Assembly: GCA_951406725.2 (NCBI GenBank)
Contig: OX597821.1
Coordinates: forward strand, 8,184,001-8,248,000
Source of the DNA: Octopus vulgaris
Lineage: Eukaryota
DNA: 64,000 nt
Direction: 5' to 3'
Positions 2,200-54,220 of the stretch are shown one piece after another. The notes below the pieces were generated by a model, which was given only the letters and a program-made list of their open reading frames with translations, ran no database searches and was not told the origin of the DNA. Each line of letters starts with the position of its first letter. The stretch's first letter is position 1. The translations under genes were made by a program, and so were the position numbers.

Positions 2200-3350
2200 T
2201 AAATTTAAAGATAGGAAACGCTGAACCATTCAAAATTGAACCGGAATAACTGCGTTTCTTTCCTTGTAAAACGACATCATCAGTCTTCGGTCTTTCACAA
2301 AAGGTAGCAGAAGGAAGGAAAGAAAGAAAAAAAAGAAAGAAAAGAATTGTGGAAAAAAATTATTTAGTCAAAAGTTTTAGTATAAATATGGTGGAATTCA
2401 CCTGCCATTTTATTAATTCCTCCAGTTCACAATATATCTATTCTCATGGGTTTTTAGGATTGGAAGTGCAGTAGAGTGAGGATATTTTTTGAGAATGTGC
2501 ACCTTCAGGTCTTCCTCAAATTTACACCAGTTTGATGTGAAATGCTCCACAAGTTCCGTGGAACCACTGTTATTGTGTCTGACGTCGTTTCTATGTCCGT
2601 TAACTCTTTTTTGTAATCGTTCTCTTGTGCAACCAACATAAATCATTTTGTTTGGTGCATTCCGCTGCATACACCAAACGGGAATTCTTATAGGCCGCTC
2701 CTTCTGTGTAAATCATAACATGTCTGTTATAATTCTTGATGGATTGGTCTGACTCATGTTATTGCACAACGAACAGAACTTATCTCTCTTTATGAGTGTT
2801 TTTGGGGATGCAGCGTTCAGAAACTCCGATGGAGTTTTTATTAAAGGTACTGGTCAATATTTCTCTAATATTTCTATTACGTCTAAAGGCTACAAAAGGC
2901 AGAAGATGAAATATTCGTCAGAAAGGAGGATATTTTTCTGAAATATGTTGGTAACTGTCATGCAACAATTTTGAAATGACAGCGAAACTTCGGTGTCTGT
3001 TAATCACTAAAAGAATTCGGCCATAAGCACTTTTCTGACTGCTAAAATTAGGCGTGAAAGTTTGATTATCACTACTAATTTCAGCTATGTCATTCGCGAT
3101 TTCATTTAATCTTGATTCACTATAACCGCGCTTTACATAATGCATGTTTTCAGTAATCCCCAAATATATGCGCAAATCTGTCTTATCCTCAAAAATTGGG
3201 ACTTCGGATTTGATCTGATTGTATGATGTGGATGACCAGAGGGCCGGTGGAGATAAATACGGGATGACATGGGTTTGCAAAATAATTCTGTGACTATTCG
3301 GCCTTCCGAAAACTTAACATTTGTGACCAAAAATTCAAATTTTGCAGCAA
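2200..3350 (-). mobile_element. Penelope-like element 3' remnant (RT thumb + GIY-YIG endonuclease)
   Basis: FCKPMSSRIYLHRPSGHPHHTIRSNPKSQFLRIRQIC (PLE thumb) and KMIYVGCTRERLQKRVNGHR (GIY-YIG); frameshifted. Confidence 0.8.
2240..2291 (-). ncRNA. Degenerate type I hammerhead motif downstream of a Penelope-like ORF
   Basis: Minus: accgaaga-CTGATGA-tgtcgttttacaaggaaa-GAAA-cgcag-TT-attccggt; core intact, helices I and II imperfect. Confidence 0.5.
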
Positions 3351-3361
3351 GAGCAGCCATT

Positions 3362-3670
3362 TTTGGATAGAGGATTAAGCCGATTACATCGACCCCAGTG
3401 TTTCACTGGCCTTTAATTTATCAACCCCGAAAGGATGAAAGGCAAAATCGACCCACAAAGGGCTAAACACAGAGAGTACAAACAAGGACAGACAAACGGA
3501 TTAAGTCGATTATATCGACCCCAGTGCGTAACTGGTACTTTTTTAATCGACCCCGAAAGGATGAAAGACAAAGTTGACCTCAGCAGAATTTGAACTCAGA
3601 ACGTAGCGGCAGACGAAAAACCGCTAAGCATTTCGTCCAGCGCGCTAACGATTCTGCCAGCTCGCCGCCT
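3362..3670 (-). mobile_element. tRNA-derived SINE family A with an internal duplication; other copies about 482-690, 713-925, 33500-33710, 51985-52202, 58243-58375, 61038-61180
   Basis: Minus head GGCGGCGAGCTGGCAGAATCG..GAGTTCAAATTC and core TTTCATCCTTTCGGGGTCGAT, repeated 7 times in the window. Confidence 0.8.
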
Positions 3671-3784
3671 TAATAATAATAATAATAATAATAATAATAA
3701 TAATAATAATAATAATAATAATAATAATAATAATAATAAAAACTAGTTTCATCACTAGTTTGTGGTGTATGTATGCTTACGTTG

Positions 3785-4035
3785 TGAAGGCTTACGGTTA
3801 GGGTGTTCGGTTAACGGTCGTAAGATCGTAAGTTTGACTTCTGGCATTGCATTGTGTCCTTGAGCAAGACACTTTATTTCACATTGCTTCAGTGCACACA
3901 GCTGGCAATAACAAGTTGTACCTGTAATTCACAGGGTCAGCCATGTCCCATTGTGTTTCATGCTGTAACTCTCTGAGAACTACGTTGAGGGTACGCGTGT
4001 CTGTAAAGTGTTCAGCCACTTGCACATTAATTTCA
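3785..4035 (+). mobile_element. Old SINE: tRNA head + CORE-like segment + family B 3' half
   Basis: gtgtccttgagcaagacactt followed by gagaactacgttgagggtacgcgtgtctg. Confidence 0.6.
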
Positions 4036-4599
4036 CTCCCAGTAGAGTTCCAGCACACCGGACACCAACCCGGAATTTATGCTAATAGGGGCTATTGCTA
4101 GATAGTTGTTGAAATTAGACTAGGTTCATCCATCCTTTTGACAGGCCTTGTTTTTAGTCCTGCTGGGTTTCTAAGAAGCCTCCCAACCTAGCAAGCTTAG
4201 TACTACAGGCTGTAATGGGTTCCATGCTTCCAGTAGCATACACGTCTAGGAAGAGAGTTCATCATGTGTGTGTGTGTGTGTGTGTGTGTGTGTGTGTGTG
4301 TGTGTGTGTGTGTGTGTGTGTGTGTGTGTTTGTGTGTGTGTGTGAGTGAGTGAACGTTAGGTTAGTTAAAATATGTTTCTGACATATTCTAACTTCTAAA
4401 GGTAAATTCACTGCAGTTACCATGCGGAAAAATCGCCCATTGTAAAATGTGTAAATATACCATATCCACCTAGTGCTTCCCCCTATCGGATTTCCAGATG
4501 TTTCTGACTCTTTAGCCATCCTGAACGGAAAATAACGAAGTGACATAATCTTGGGTAGATTCAAAACCGTAGCTTTAACGAAAAGACAGTCAACATTAG

Positions 4600-51259: not shown

Positions 51260-52733
51260 ATCTAATATAATAAATGCGAAAACTAATTTCTGTGTGTCAG
51301 TGTGTCACACTTAGAGCCCCTTTCCCACTATTCAATGAAACTTCTACTACTCCTCATGATGGAGTGAGAGTAATAGTAGGCATAGAGAAGGTGGGGATGG
51401 TGGCAAAGACACACAGAGAGAGAGAGAGAGAGAGAGGAAGAAAAAGAGAGGGAGAGAAAGAGAGACAAAGAAATTTAGGGAGAGTTGATGATGTCTTATT
51501 GAAAAGTAGTAGTGTTGATGGTGGCAGTGGGAATAATAAAAGAGAGAGAAAGAATGATTATGTGAGAGAAAGAGGGAGATGATGTACAACTTTGCTTAAC
51601 CATGTCTCTTTGACAGAAATTCCTGTCACCAACATACTGAACACTATCATATTTATATATATATATATATATATATAAGGGTAAACAATTAATATTTTAA
51701 AAAACCCAATAATTATTCACGGGTAGATTTCAGTATGTAAATATAACCATTATCGGTAGGAACTTTAAAAAAAAAGTTCTATATATATTGTATATAAATA
51801 AAATTGTCTTTGACTGCTATTTCTAATTTTTCGGTATGTGGCTAAGCAACCTGTTGCCTGCCCTTATATATATATATATATATATGTGTGTGTGAAATAC
51901 ACTTTAATTGAAATAAAGTTTCCTCCAAATTAAATATATCTAATGTAATAAATGTGAATGTCAGTGTGTCACACACTTTCAACAAAATCCTTTCTACTAG
52001 AGGCACAAGGCCTCAAATTGTGGTAGAAGCGATTAAGTCGATTACATCGACCCCAGTACGTAGATGGCAATAATTTTATCGACCCCGAAAGGATGAAAGG
52101 TAAAGTCGACCTCGGCGGAATTCGAACTCAAAACCTAACGGCAGACGAAATAACGATAAGCATTTCTCCCGGGGTGCTAACGATTCTGCCAACTCGCCAC
52201 CTTAATATAATATAATAAAATATAATAAATGTGAATGTCAGTGTTTCAGTGTGTCACACTTTTTCAATTTTACTCCTAGAGGCTGTTGCCCAACATATCT
52301 TACCATTTTGGAATCAGACTGATTCGGACCCACAATCCTGAAATTTTGGAATCCCAAGTTTTCATTACTATATTTGTTTTCGACGATGTTTTTTACGTGA
52401 CTTTTTGTAACAAATTTTTTCGTACGATAACAATTTTTATAATCTAATGGCTAACTCCTTGAGTGAATTAAAAACATTCAGGGATGAATCCGGACCTGCA
52501 AACCTGAAATTCTGGATTCCTATGTTTTCATTACTGCGATTGTTTTCGACGAATTTTTTTTTACATGATTTTTTTTGCGACGGATATGATCATCATTGGG
52601 ATATGACTCTGGAGGAAGCAATTGCAACAAATTCTCCAAAACAAGTCAGAGATATGTTTGCAGAGTTTCCCATTCAGAGTCAGTTGCTTAAAAGCTATAT
52701 ACTAGCTTAAAAGCTGCCCAATAGGCTAGCTAG
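51260..52733 (+). mobile_element. Helitron relics with RepHel fragment (nested with SINE A and TA repeats)
   Basis: TCTAATATAATAAATG-type starts at about 51260, 51937 and 52220; DHHWDMTLEEAIATNSPKQVRDMFA resembles Helitron helicase; ends CTAGT. Confidence 0.6.
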
Positions 52734-52741
52734 TATCCTAT

Positions 52742-53620
52742 TATTCTTTTATTCTTTTACTTGTTTCAGTCATTTTGACTGCGGCTATGTTGGAGCACCA
52801 CCTTTAGTCGAGCAAATCGGCACCAGGACTTATTCTTTGCAAGCCTAGTAATTATTCCATCGCTCCCTTTTACCGAACCGCTAAGTTACGGGTACTGAAA
52901 CACACTAGCATCTGTTATCAAGCAATGTTGGGGGAAATAAACACACACACATACATATACACACACATGCATATGTGTGTATGTGTGTATGTATACAGCG
53001 GGCTTCTTTCAGTTTCCTTCTACCAAATCCACTCACAAAGATGTGGTCGTCCCGATGCTATAGTAGAAAACACTTGCCCAAGGTGCCACGGAGTAGGACT
53101 AAACCCGGAACCTGGTGGTTGGTAAGCAAGCTACTTATACATACATACATGCATACATACACACACACACACACACATACACACACACACACACACACAC
53201 ACACACACACACACACACACACACACACACACACACACATATATATATGTGGCCATGTTAAAGGGTTTAATTCGAAGAAATCGACCCCAGAACTTATTCT
53301 TTCTAAACTTAGTACTTATTCTATCGGTGTCTTTGACGAACTGCTAGTTACGGAGACATAGACACACCAACATTGGTTGTCAAATAAATATGCATACATA
53401 CATGCATATATATATATATACATACATACATACACACACACACACACACACACACATATATATATATATATATACGACGAGCTTCTTTCACTTTCCGTCT
53501 ACCAAATCCACTCACAAAGATTTGGTCGACCCAAGGCTATAGTAGAACGCACATGTCCAGGCTGAACTCGGAACGATGTTTATTGGGAAGCAAGGTTCTT
53601 ATCACACACCCACGCCTGCG
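52742..53620 (-). mobile_element. Two adjacent SINE family C copies
   Basis: About 52742-53135 and 53250-53620, separated by (CA)n. Confidence 0.75.
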
Positions 53621-53694
53621 TCTATACAGACACACATATATATACACATATACATATATATATATATATATATATATATGTGTATATATACACA

Positions 53695-54220
53695 TTAATA
53701 GTTATCGCCATATTAATATGGCAGTCTTATAAATATAAGACTAAAGCTGTCGCTGATTAGCTCCATGATGCCATCGCCTTAAGCTAGCTATTTGACACAC
53801 AAACTGCGTCCATTTTAAACCTTCGAACAATTTTAATATTTCTATTATTGAAAACAAGTGGATGTATTCCACTGAAACTAGGTAAATAAAAGCCTTCGAA
53901 CTGGGACGATCAGTAGCGACACCTGCAAGTCTGACTACGCTGCATTGATAAGGGGCAACAGCCCTGAAACGTCGTCTGTAGCTGTCTGACTGGCAGGATG
54001 AAGCGGCTGACCTCCCTTGTTCGAAGGTTTAAAATGGACGCAGTTTGTGTGTCAAATAGCTAGCTTAAGGCGATGGCCTCATAGAGCTAATCAGCGACAG
54101 GTTTAGTCTTATATTTATAAGACTGCCATATTAGTATGGCGATAACAAATAATTTCCAGTAATCTCCTTTACAGAGTAATCTCCTTTAGAGAGACTTAGT
54201 AATTTTAATATTTCTATTAT
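53695..54220 (+). mobile_element. Non-autonomous HHR-bearing element with inverted 5' partial copy and terminal direct repeat
   Basis: 53695-53830 is the reverse complement of 54017-54152; AATTTTAATATTTCTATTAT occurs at 53829-53848 and 54201-54220; flanked by TA-rich tracts. Confidence 0.75.
53939..53982 (+). ncRNA. Type I hammerhead ribozyme, U3-A8 core variant (second copy)
   Basis: gctgca-TTGATAA-ggggc(aaca)gccct-GAAA-cgtcg-TC-tgtagc; cleavage predicted after 53976. Confidence 0.8.

Follow-up and report, generated by a model that had tools for sequence, protein, structure and literature searches.

Type I hammerhead ribozymes are known from the pseudo-long terminal repeats of Penelope-like elements (PLEs), and widespread single hammerheads derived from truncated PLEs have already been described (PMC4209133, Cervera and de la Pena 2014). 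As described in the main texts drawn on here, the purified PLE protein of a lizard can cut AT-rich DNA on both strands and extend each, two internal RNA start sites define a 'tail', and the ribozyme of that element cuts only with the protein present and is dispensable for insertion (PMC11167929). PLE insertions include partial tandems and inverted truncated partners, often have the tail at one end only and are biased toward microsatellites (PMC8557442). The non-LTR (long terminal repeat) retrozymes of coral, mussel (~5,000) and axolotl (120,000) (PMC7229834, Cervera and de la Pena 2020) are non-coding units of 150-450 nt (up to ~970 in Li et al.) with a GC content below 45-50% and one type I hammerhead, and they have been argued to be non-autonomous PLE derivatives (Li, Clavereau and Pollet 2026, bioRxiv 10.64898/2026.07.22.740005). 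Here we analyze 64,000 nt of the Octopus vulgaris genome (contig OX597821.1, positions 8,184,001 to 8,248,000; hereafter the window), in which an earlier note had listed about 14 type I hammerhead motifs. Judged from sequence, these motifs are very probably hammerhead folds in the 3′ terminal repeats of PLEs: eight of the 14 sites would be tails or derivatives, lacking open reading frames (ORFs), of coding elements, and four lie in two non-coding units likely copied in trans by the same enzymes.

The window has a GC content of 37% and very abundant microsatellites, within an assembly of 2.8 Gb. We searched both strands with a strict type I hammerhead descriptor (C3-G8 or U3-A8, U4C allowed, an optional base after A9) and set the chance level by 40 local dinucleotide shuffles of the window. 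The strict descriptor gave five matches against a shuffle mean of 0.225 (maximum 1), its well-paired subset four against 0.025, and the well-paired subset with one mismatch allowed per helix six against 0.85.

The 14 listed sites resolve into five intact, three near-intact and one atypical motif, three damaged copies of real families and two doubtful sites. The descriptor strictly recovered 17672(+), 35743(-), 47759(-) and 53939(+); 42652(-) was recovered with one mismatch, and 21485, 25359 and 40337(-) at loose settings only. All eight of these sites, and 48192, have the full core boxes (C3/U3-UGAN-G8/A8-A9; GAAA; U-H17), which 10396, 38044, 38525 and 26366 lack. No descriptor setting recovered the remaining six, each for its own reason: 10396 is a truncated copy without helix I and C3; position 17 is G in 38044 and 38525, and 38525 also lacks GAAA; 48192 belongs to a family whose helix I is only 2 bp throughout; the family copies of 2240 give no support for helices II and III despite its core boxes; and 26366, on the plus strand, has G at position 6 in most copies and a 3-bp helix I. 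A density of one motif per 4-5 kb, as first claimed, holds only if decayed copies are counted, and intact motifs occur once per 13-16 kb. Self-cleavage of the intact motifs is a prediction.

The claim of about nine unrelated families proved accurate. We found nine, each with at least 40 dispersed matches in the genome, and the only similarity between families was one 22-nt AT-rich match. Genome candidates per family ranged from 55 to ~2,200 at first look, all lower bounds. Among copies chosen as the top matches by likeness to the window copy, a choice that biases pass rates upward, the strict descriptor was passed by 14/30 copies of family A, 21/25 of B, 21/25 of C, 16/20 of F, 6/20 of E and 1/20 of D (9/20 with one mismatch), and by 0/15, 0/15 and 0/12 copies of G, H and I; the window copy is among those counted, and a few places appear twice. 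Helix III is palindromic or near-palindromic in seven of the nine families, much as had been noted, though in family B a wobble version prevails (20 of 30 copies, against five with the perfect palindrome seen in the window copy). The palindromes form no hairpin when isolated and pair as dimers at -1.7 to -15.9 kcal/mol, which fits the dimer model of PMC4209133. As in the PLE hammerheads of that paper's main text, the octopus motifs are type I, with palindromic helix III, an extra base between A9 and 10.1 and a U3-A8 variant, and they form many unrelated families in one genome, mostly as single motifs from truncated PLEs and with close pairs on opposite strands. Several octopus families differ from those in that helix II has long insertions and the palindromes of helix III, at 8-12 nt, are longer and more stable.

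Five families (B, D, E, F and I), accounting for eight of the 14 sites, are on the anatomy of their copies the 3′ ends of PLEs coding for reverse transcriptase (RT) and a GIY-YIG endonuclease, with 38044/38525 an ORF-less derivative. We read their window copies as follows.

47713..47957, minus strand: family B, coding PLE cut down to its 3′ end by 5′ truncation, joined by an inverted tail piece of 50 nt and flanked by (TA)n on both sides; the hammerhead at 47759-47841 is intact.
42624..42999, minus strand: family D, decayed remnant of the C-terminus of a PLE endonuclease of the GIY-YIG type (42865-42999), then a hammerhead (42652-42719) with one helix II mismatch.
21380..21545, minus strand: family E, 3′ end of a coding PLE, a long-tail arm and a short inverted arm; U4C hammerhead at ~21480-21527, whose helix II has an A.G mismatch at its base.
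25335..25410, minus strand: family E, short copy; U4C hammerhead at ~25350-25405.
40238..40440, minus strand: family F, 3′ end of a coding PLE of the Cys-rich linker type; minimal U4C hammerhead at 40337-40371 with a 4-nt palindromic helix III and one helix I mismatch.
37951..38666, minus strand: partial tandem related to family F, period ~481 nt, ORF-less; two damaged hammerheads with cores at 38065-38074 and 38546-38555, both G17.
2100..3313, minus strand: family I, broken PLE relic with a GIY-YIG-like frame at 2416-2712; core boxes at 2247-2283 in the 3′ region, helices II and III unsupported, no TA boundary.

Long copies of family B have more than 2 kb in common (94-96% identical), with RT motifs ahead of a C-terminal GIY-YIG-like domain; the ribozyme is located in their 3′ untranslated region and again in the inverted partner. 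The endonuclease was found upstream of the ribozyme in six of 25 family B loci, a C-terminal remnant of it in 11 of 20 family D loci (a twelfth match is a separate B-type insertion), and a GIY-YIG-like frame just upstream in 11 of 12 family I loci. When 13 family F loci were chosen by their endonuclease sequence, the ribozyme lay 1.4-2.6 kb downstream in the same sense in 12, and direct flanking repeats, with a second F copy upstream, were present in two. Four long copies of family E have 0.7-1.2 kb of upstream sequence in common, one running into an endonuclease-like frame and another holding an inverted RT piece of the same element; a fixed 5′ end for this family was considered and rejected, as longer copies extend upstream beyond a hairpin. 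RT and endonuclease thus occur in order in B and F and an endonuclease part upstream in D, E and I, where RT was found only for E, while inverted 5′-truncated partners are present in B, D, E and I. The spacer between 38525 and 38044 matches the 5′ region after the upstream repeat of one coding F element (77.5%), so that the tandem is best read as an ORF-less derivative. Neighbors of the parent proteins in the Atlas carry RVT_1/HTH_animal and GIY-YIG (scores 0.95-0.97), and a PDB sequence search with the family B RT returned no match. By motif resemblance only, we take B, D and E to be Hydra-like and F, with its Cys-rich linker, to be Neptune-like.

These longer copies bear on the proposal of the earlier note that all nine families are independent, non-autonomous ribozyme mini-elements. 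The window copies are indeed short and non-coding, the tandem at 38044/38525 is ORF-less, and families G and H have so far no coding link; the description holds for families A and C. It fails for B, D, E, F and I, whose longer copies continue into sequence coding for RT or endonuclease, and as an account of the whole set it is improbable. The four coding relics of PLEs that had been noticed in the window were all confirmed. The copies of G and H, and two PLE relics that stand without a convincing ribozyme, are listed here.

48020..48420, minus strand: family G copy; atypical hammerhead-like motif at ~48185-48300 with a 2-bp helix I, a long AT-rich helix II and an 8-nt palindromic helix III.
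26360..26420, plus strand: family H, old, degenerate and doubtful hammerhead-like motif with G at position 6 and a 3-bp helix I.
12620..13397, plus strand: broken PLE relic, an RT fragment and a Cys-linker endonuclease fragment; no downstream hammerhead by descriptor.
38909..39728, plus strand: broken PLE endonuclease relic in two pieces; no convincing downstream hammerhead.

A long upstream match of family G proved to be an unrelated repeat.

Two families (A and C; four of the 14 sites) are alone in being, as far as their copies reveal, non-coding and retrozyme-like units.

17610..17882, plus strand: family A copy between (TA)n runs; intact hammerhead at 17672-17760 with a 12-nt perfect palindromic helix III, predicted cut after 17754.
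10272..10483, minus strand: family A copy with a 5′ truncation at the first core box, lacking helix I and C3 and predicted to be inactive; identity to the 17672 copy is 85%.
53694..54220, plus strand: family C head-to-head insertion, with an inverted short-end arm from 53694 and a direct long-end arm to 54220; intact U3-A8 hammerhead at 53939-53982 in a long hairpin.
35575..35904, minus strand: family C copy; intact U3-A8 hammerhead at 35743-35785, short 3′ end at (TA)n.

Unit C measures 365 nt (GC 0.42, longest stop-free frame 86 aa) and unit A 462-477 nt (GC 0.33, longest stop-free frame 50 aa), each with one type I hammerhead. In both, the sequence upstream of the ribozyme is the unit's own 3′ end, and copies exceed one unit in 8 of 30 cases for A and 16 of 25 for C. 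Partial tandems are common, and no complete two-ribozyme tandem was found among 29 A and 36 C places, the top matches of ~2,000 candidates each. In size (365 and ~470 nt), GC content below 45%, single hammerhead, more-than-unit copies and co-occurrence with PLEs, A and C resemble the animal non-LTR retrozymes of PMC7229834 and bioRxiv 10.64898/2026.07.22.740005, and unit C falls within the 350-390 nt given for the mussel (PMC7229834). They differ from the retrozymes described there in arrangement: the copies sampled are scattered, as 0.5-1.6-mers or as head-to-head pairs, within (TA)n, and the loci fetched included neither a full dimer nor a long array. Assembled contigs of three presumed RNA runs and one run of uncertain kind cover parts of unit C, and such contigs are uninformative on strand, ends and circles.

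Other features of these copies were also recorded. Within 17540-17990, the family A copy sits in the TA center of an older palindromic element, the flanks beyond both (TA)n runs being inverted repeats of each other. The family C ribozyme is embedded in a ~50-bp hairpin, and across loci L056-L080 its helix III palindrome is 4, 6 or 7 nt with conserved flanks. A family C inverted pair 2.4 kb apart was tried as a coding parent and rejected, because it flanks an unrelated ORF1-like frame.

Coding and non-coding families have the same insertion anatomy. Downstream of the ribozyme, (TA)5 or a longer run is reached within 260 nt in 25/30 copies of A, 25/25 of B, 18/25 of C, 20/20 of E, 19/20 of F, 10/15 of G, 9/20 of D and 0/12 of I, compared with 18% of control positions. 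Distances from ribozyme to (TA)n cluster at one or two values per family, and 5′ ends vary. In family C, 20 of 36 distinct places are head-to-head and 19 of these 20 pair a short with a longer end, 14 at ~+175 and +238; one is short/short and none long/long. Family E is head-to-head at 18 of 36 places, and all 17 informative pairs are short/long, the long arms having been recognized from their flanks. The nine head-to-head places among 29 of family A, whose start points map to ~+130 and +240, comprise six short/+240, one short/+208, one short/short and one doubtful, and the nine among 23 of family B six short/long, two long/long and one uninformative. Sites 53939, 21485 and 47759 are the window's examples of head-to-head arms. 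This pairing of short and long ends is the 'tail' footprint of PLEs, and what is informative at the microsatellites is that copies of a family end 3′ at fixed points next to (TA)n. Size of the microsatellite island, to which the earlier note had drawn attention, was dropped as evidence: eight of the 14 sites do lie in microsatellite-bounded islands of at most 600 bp, but so do 45% of the non-repeat bases of the window. Different ribozyme families are often adjacent with only (TA)n between them (47713-48420; L142, L143, L034, L020), which suggests repeated use of the same microsatellite target.

The anatomy resembles that of Poseidon, the PLE of Anolis carolinensis (Frangieh et al. 2024, PMC11167929), and of PLEs generally (Craig et al. 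2021, PMC8557442), in the AT-rich target, extension of both ends, two internal start points that leave a tail at one end, and the inverted 5′-truncated partner. Octopus tails differ from those given for Poseidon in length (~60-150 nt versus 30-40), and the two octopus arms almost always use different start points whereas no strand difference is described in vitro (PMC11167929). The same footprint speaks to whether A and C were instead moved, in the fashion of short interspersed elements, by the enzyme of a long interspersed nuclear element (LINE; RTE, CR1 or R2-like) and only resemble PLEs at their ends. LINE relics do lie in the window and no PLE partner was found for A or C. However, their two fixed internal 3′ ends, one per arm, their head-to-head arms and their partial tandems match coding PLE families B and E, such a footprint is described as peculiar to PLEs (PMC11167929, PMC8557442), and no poly(A) tail was seen at the 3′ ends of the A and C copies examined. 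We consider mobilization by a LINE quite unlikely.

The earlier note was right that these are type I hammerheads tied to PLEs, and mobilization by PLE enzymes, which it proposed, is likely. From the anatomy of the copies and the published in vitro work on the lizard PLE, a likely cycle can be sketched. PLE protein would cut both strands of a TA-rich site and begin reverse transcription on each broken end, each time from a different fixed point inside the RNA, downstream of the ribozyme. The two complementary DNAs, usually 5′-truncated, would then be joined head-to-head, or one alone retained. PLE enzymes would have made all these insertions, those of A and C in trans, and two motifs of a tandem transcript would be able to dimerize through their palindromic helix III. 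Copying that starts 40-240 nt downstream of the ribozyme would make the ribozyme the part copied most often and leave one in even the shortest insertions, which explains the swarm.

Whether A and C pass through circular RNA is a refinement of this cycle. As retrozymes, their tandem transcripts would be cut by the ribozymes, ligated and reverse-transcribed around the circle; the competing possibility is copying of uncut tandem transcripts. Circles would account for copies longer than one unit, including one family A copy that passes the predicted cut site twice, and for two long copies that stop within ~10 nt of that site, and they have been shown for coral, mussel and axolotl retrozymes (PMC7229834). 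Five of 29 family C copies also have their 5′ ends within a few bases (~10 nt) downstream of the cut site, but ~2 are expected and the excess is not significant (P=0.06). Most A and C copies read through the predicted site, which in family C lies inside the strong hairpin. In the reported experiments, ribozyme mutants had no effect on in vitro insertion by the lizard PLE (PMC11167929) and eight of nine Xenopus dimers failed to cleave (bioRxiv 10.64898/2026.07.22.740005). We regard circles as a serious possibility that falls somewhat short of even chances.

To place the window in its genome, we examined 50 blindly chosen 10-kb stretches (499,900 bases). They contain 15 strict matches scoring at least 11, compared with 0-3 (mean 1.3) in 10 shuffles, or about one strict motif per 35 kb, which extrapolates to ~77,000 genome-wide (40,000-131,000). 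The window, with four such matches in 64 kb, has about twice this average (P=0.13) and is thus not exceptional. The estimate stands against thousands in the main text of PMC4209133, a comparison across differing descriptors. Family E occurs in five of the blind stretches, F in six, B in two, and C and H in one each, with A, D, G and I in none; most matches belong to further families. At least 10 further well-formed hammerhead families were seen (L087, L091, L095, L097, L099, L198, L202, L203, L209, L312), one of which (L203, L209) has a long helix III. A high-copy repeat at 57784-57908 (+), also present at L089, L096 and L098, has both core words and weak helices I and II and passes the one-mismatch descriptor; it is probably a hairpin look-alike, and possibly a rewired form.

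Several observations weigh against assigning the motifs to ribozymes and their parents to PLEs. The shuffled control suggested in the earlier note cuts both ways: strict matches stand well above shuffles, but at the loosest setting the window gave 19 matches against a shuffle mean of 10.5 (maximum 21), a raw count within chance. The family samples favor copies like those of the window. The hammerhead fold lay 2-7 kcal/mol above the minimum-energy fold in all seven motifs tested, and the families, scored without C and E, give weak covariation, with P=0.067 for helix I of A and a few compensatory pairs in subfamilies of B and F. For the parent proteins, Pfam scores fall short of curated cut-offs or are lacking, and their identification as PLEs draws on motifs, domain order and language-model neighbors. 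The coding link of family E comes from two loci; none was found in the copies of families G and H; for A and C we found no PLE protein match, no autonomous partner and no sequence link to a coding element; and the ends of family C near the cut site are not significantly in excess. An Rfam scan of the window returned nothing at the gathering threshold and, around 35743, nothing at E<=10; a scan by E-value was swamped by microsatellite matches.

The loose count and the Rfam result are what one would expect if the motifs were chance folds in AT-rich repeats, as is the failure of 2240 and 26366 under the descriptor in nearly all their family copies. Strict matches nevertheless exceed shuffles ~20-fold in the window and 12-fold in the blind stretches, and unrelated families have in common a palindromic helix III and a purine at 10.1, neither of which the descriptor asks for. 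Chance is plausible only for 2240 and 26366, and as a general explanation we give it very little credence. We continue to favor hammerheads in the 3′ terminal repeats of PLEs.

The surroundings of the motifs include an exon-like frame at 55860-55995 (+) that matches the N-terminus of a flavin amine oxidase (Pfam Amino_oxidase, E=4.6e-12), and some motifs may lie in introns or upstream of an amine oxidase gene. Eleven of the 14 listed motifs are on the minus strand, opposite this exon, which could reflect selection against self-cleaving motifs on the sense strand, or chance. Other mobile-element relics lie at 35929-37451 (+), 6146-7123 (-), 30546-31235 (-), 56950-57398 (-), 45026-45310 (-) and 61702-63837 (+). 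They would be LINE-type RT frames, R2/Dong-like C-terminal pieces, a mariner helix-turn-helix and an LTR-retroelement-like stretch, labels that go in part beyond the Pfam matches.

The kind of element is already published, as PLE hammerheads and retrozymes; the host and the scale are new. Our literature search, which covered main texts, found no paper on cephalopod hammerheads, and the word 'ribozyme' is absent from the main text of a recent Octopus vulgaris repeat annotation (PMC13282606). A bolder view, which we hold only tentatively and think rather unlikely, is that this genome has one of the densest and most diverse animal hammerhead populations (on the order of 10^5 motifs in tens of families), and that a dimeric PLE enzyme, with two obligatory and different start points, one per DNA end, copies short non-coding units such as A and C from circles made by the ribozymes. 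If true, the rule of one short and one long end would let the PLE integration intermediate be read directly from the genome and would prove that retrozymes ride on PLEs.

With our results, a microsatellite-rich octopus genome joins those of animals that have very large numbers of hammerheads, here invisible to Rfam, and most such motifs prove to be nothing more than PLE tails. The insertion footprint of coding PLEs is also that of families A and C, in support of the published, if indirectly argued, view that PLE enzymes mobilize retrozymes, and the two mapped start points provide a concrete basis for testing it in vitro.

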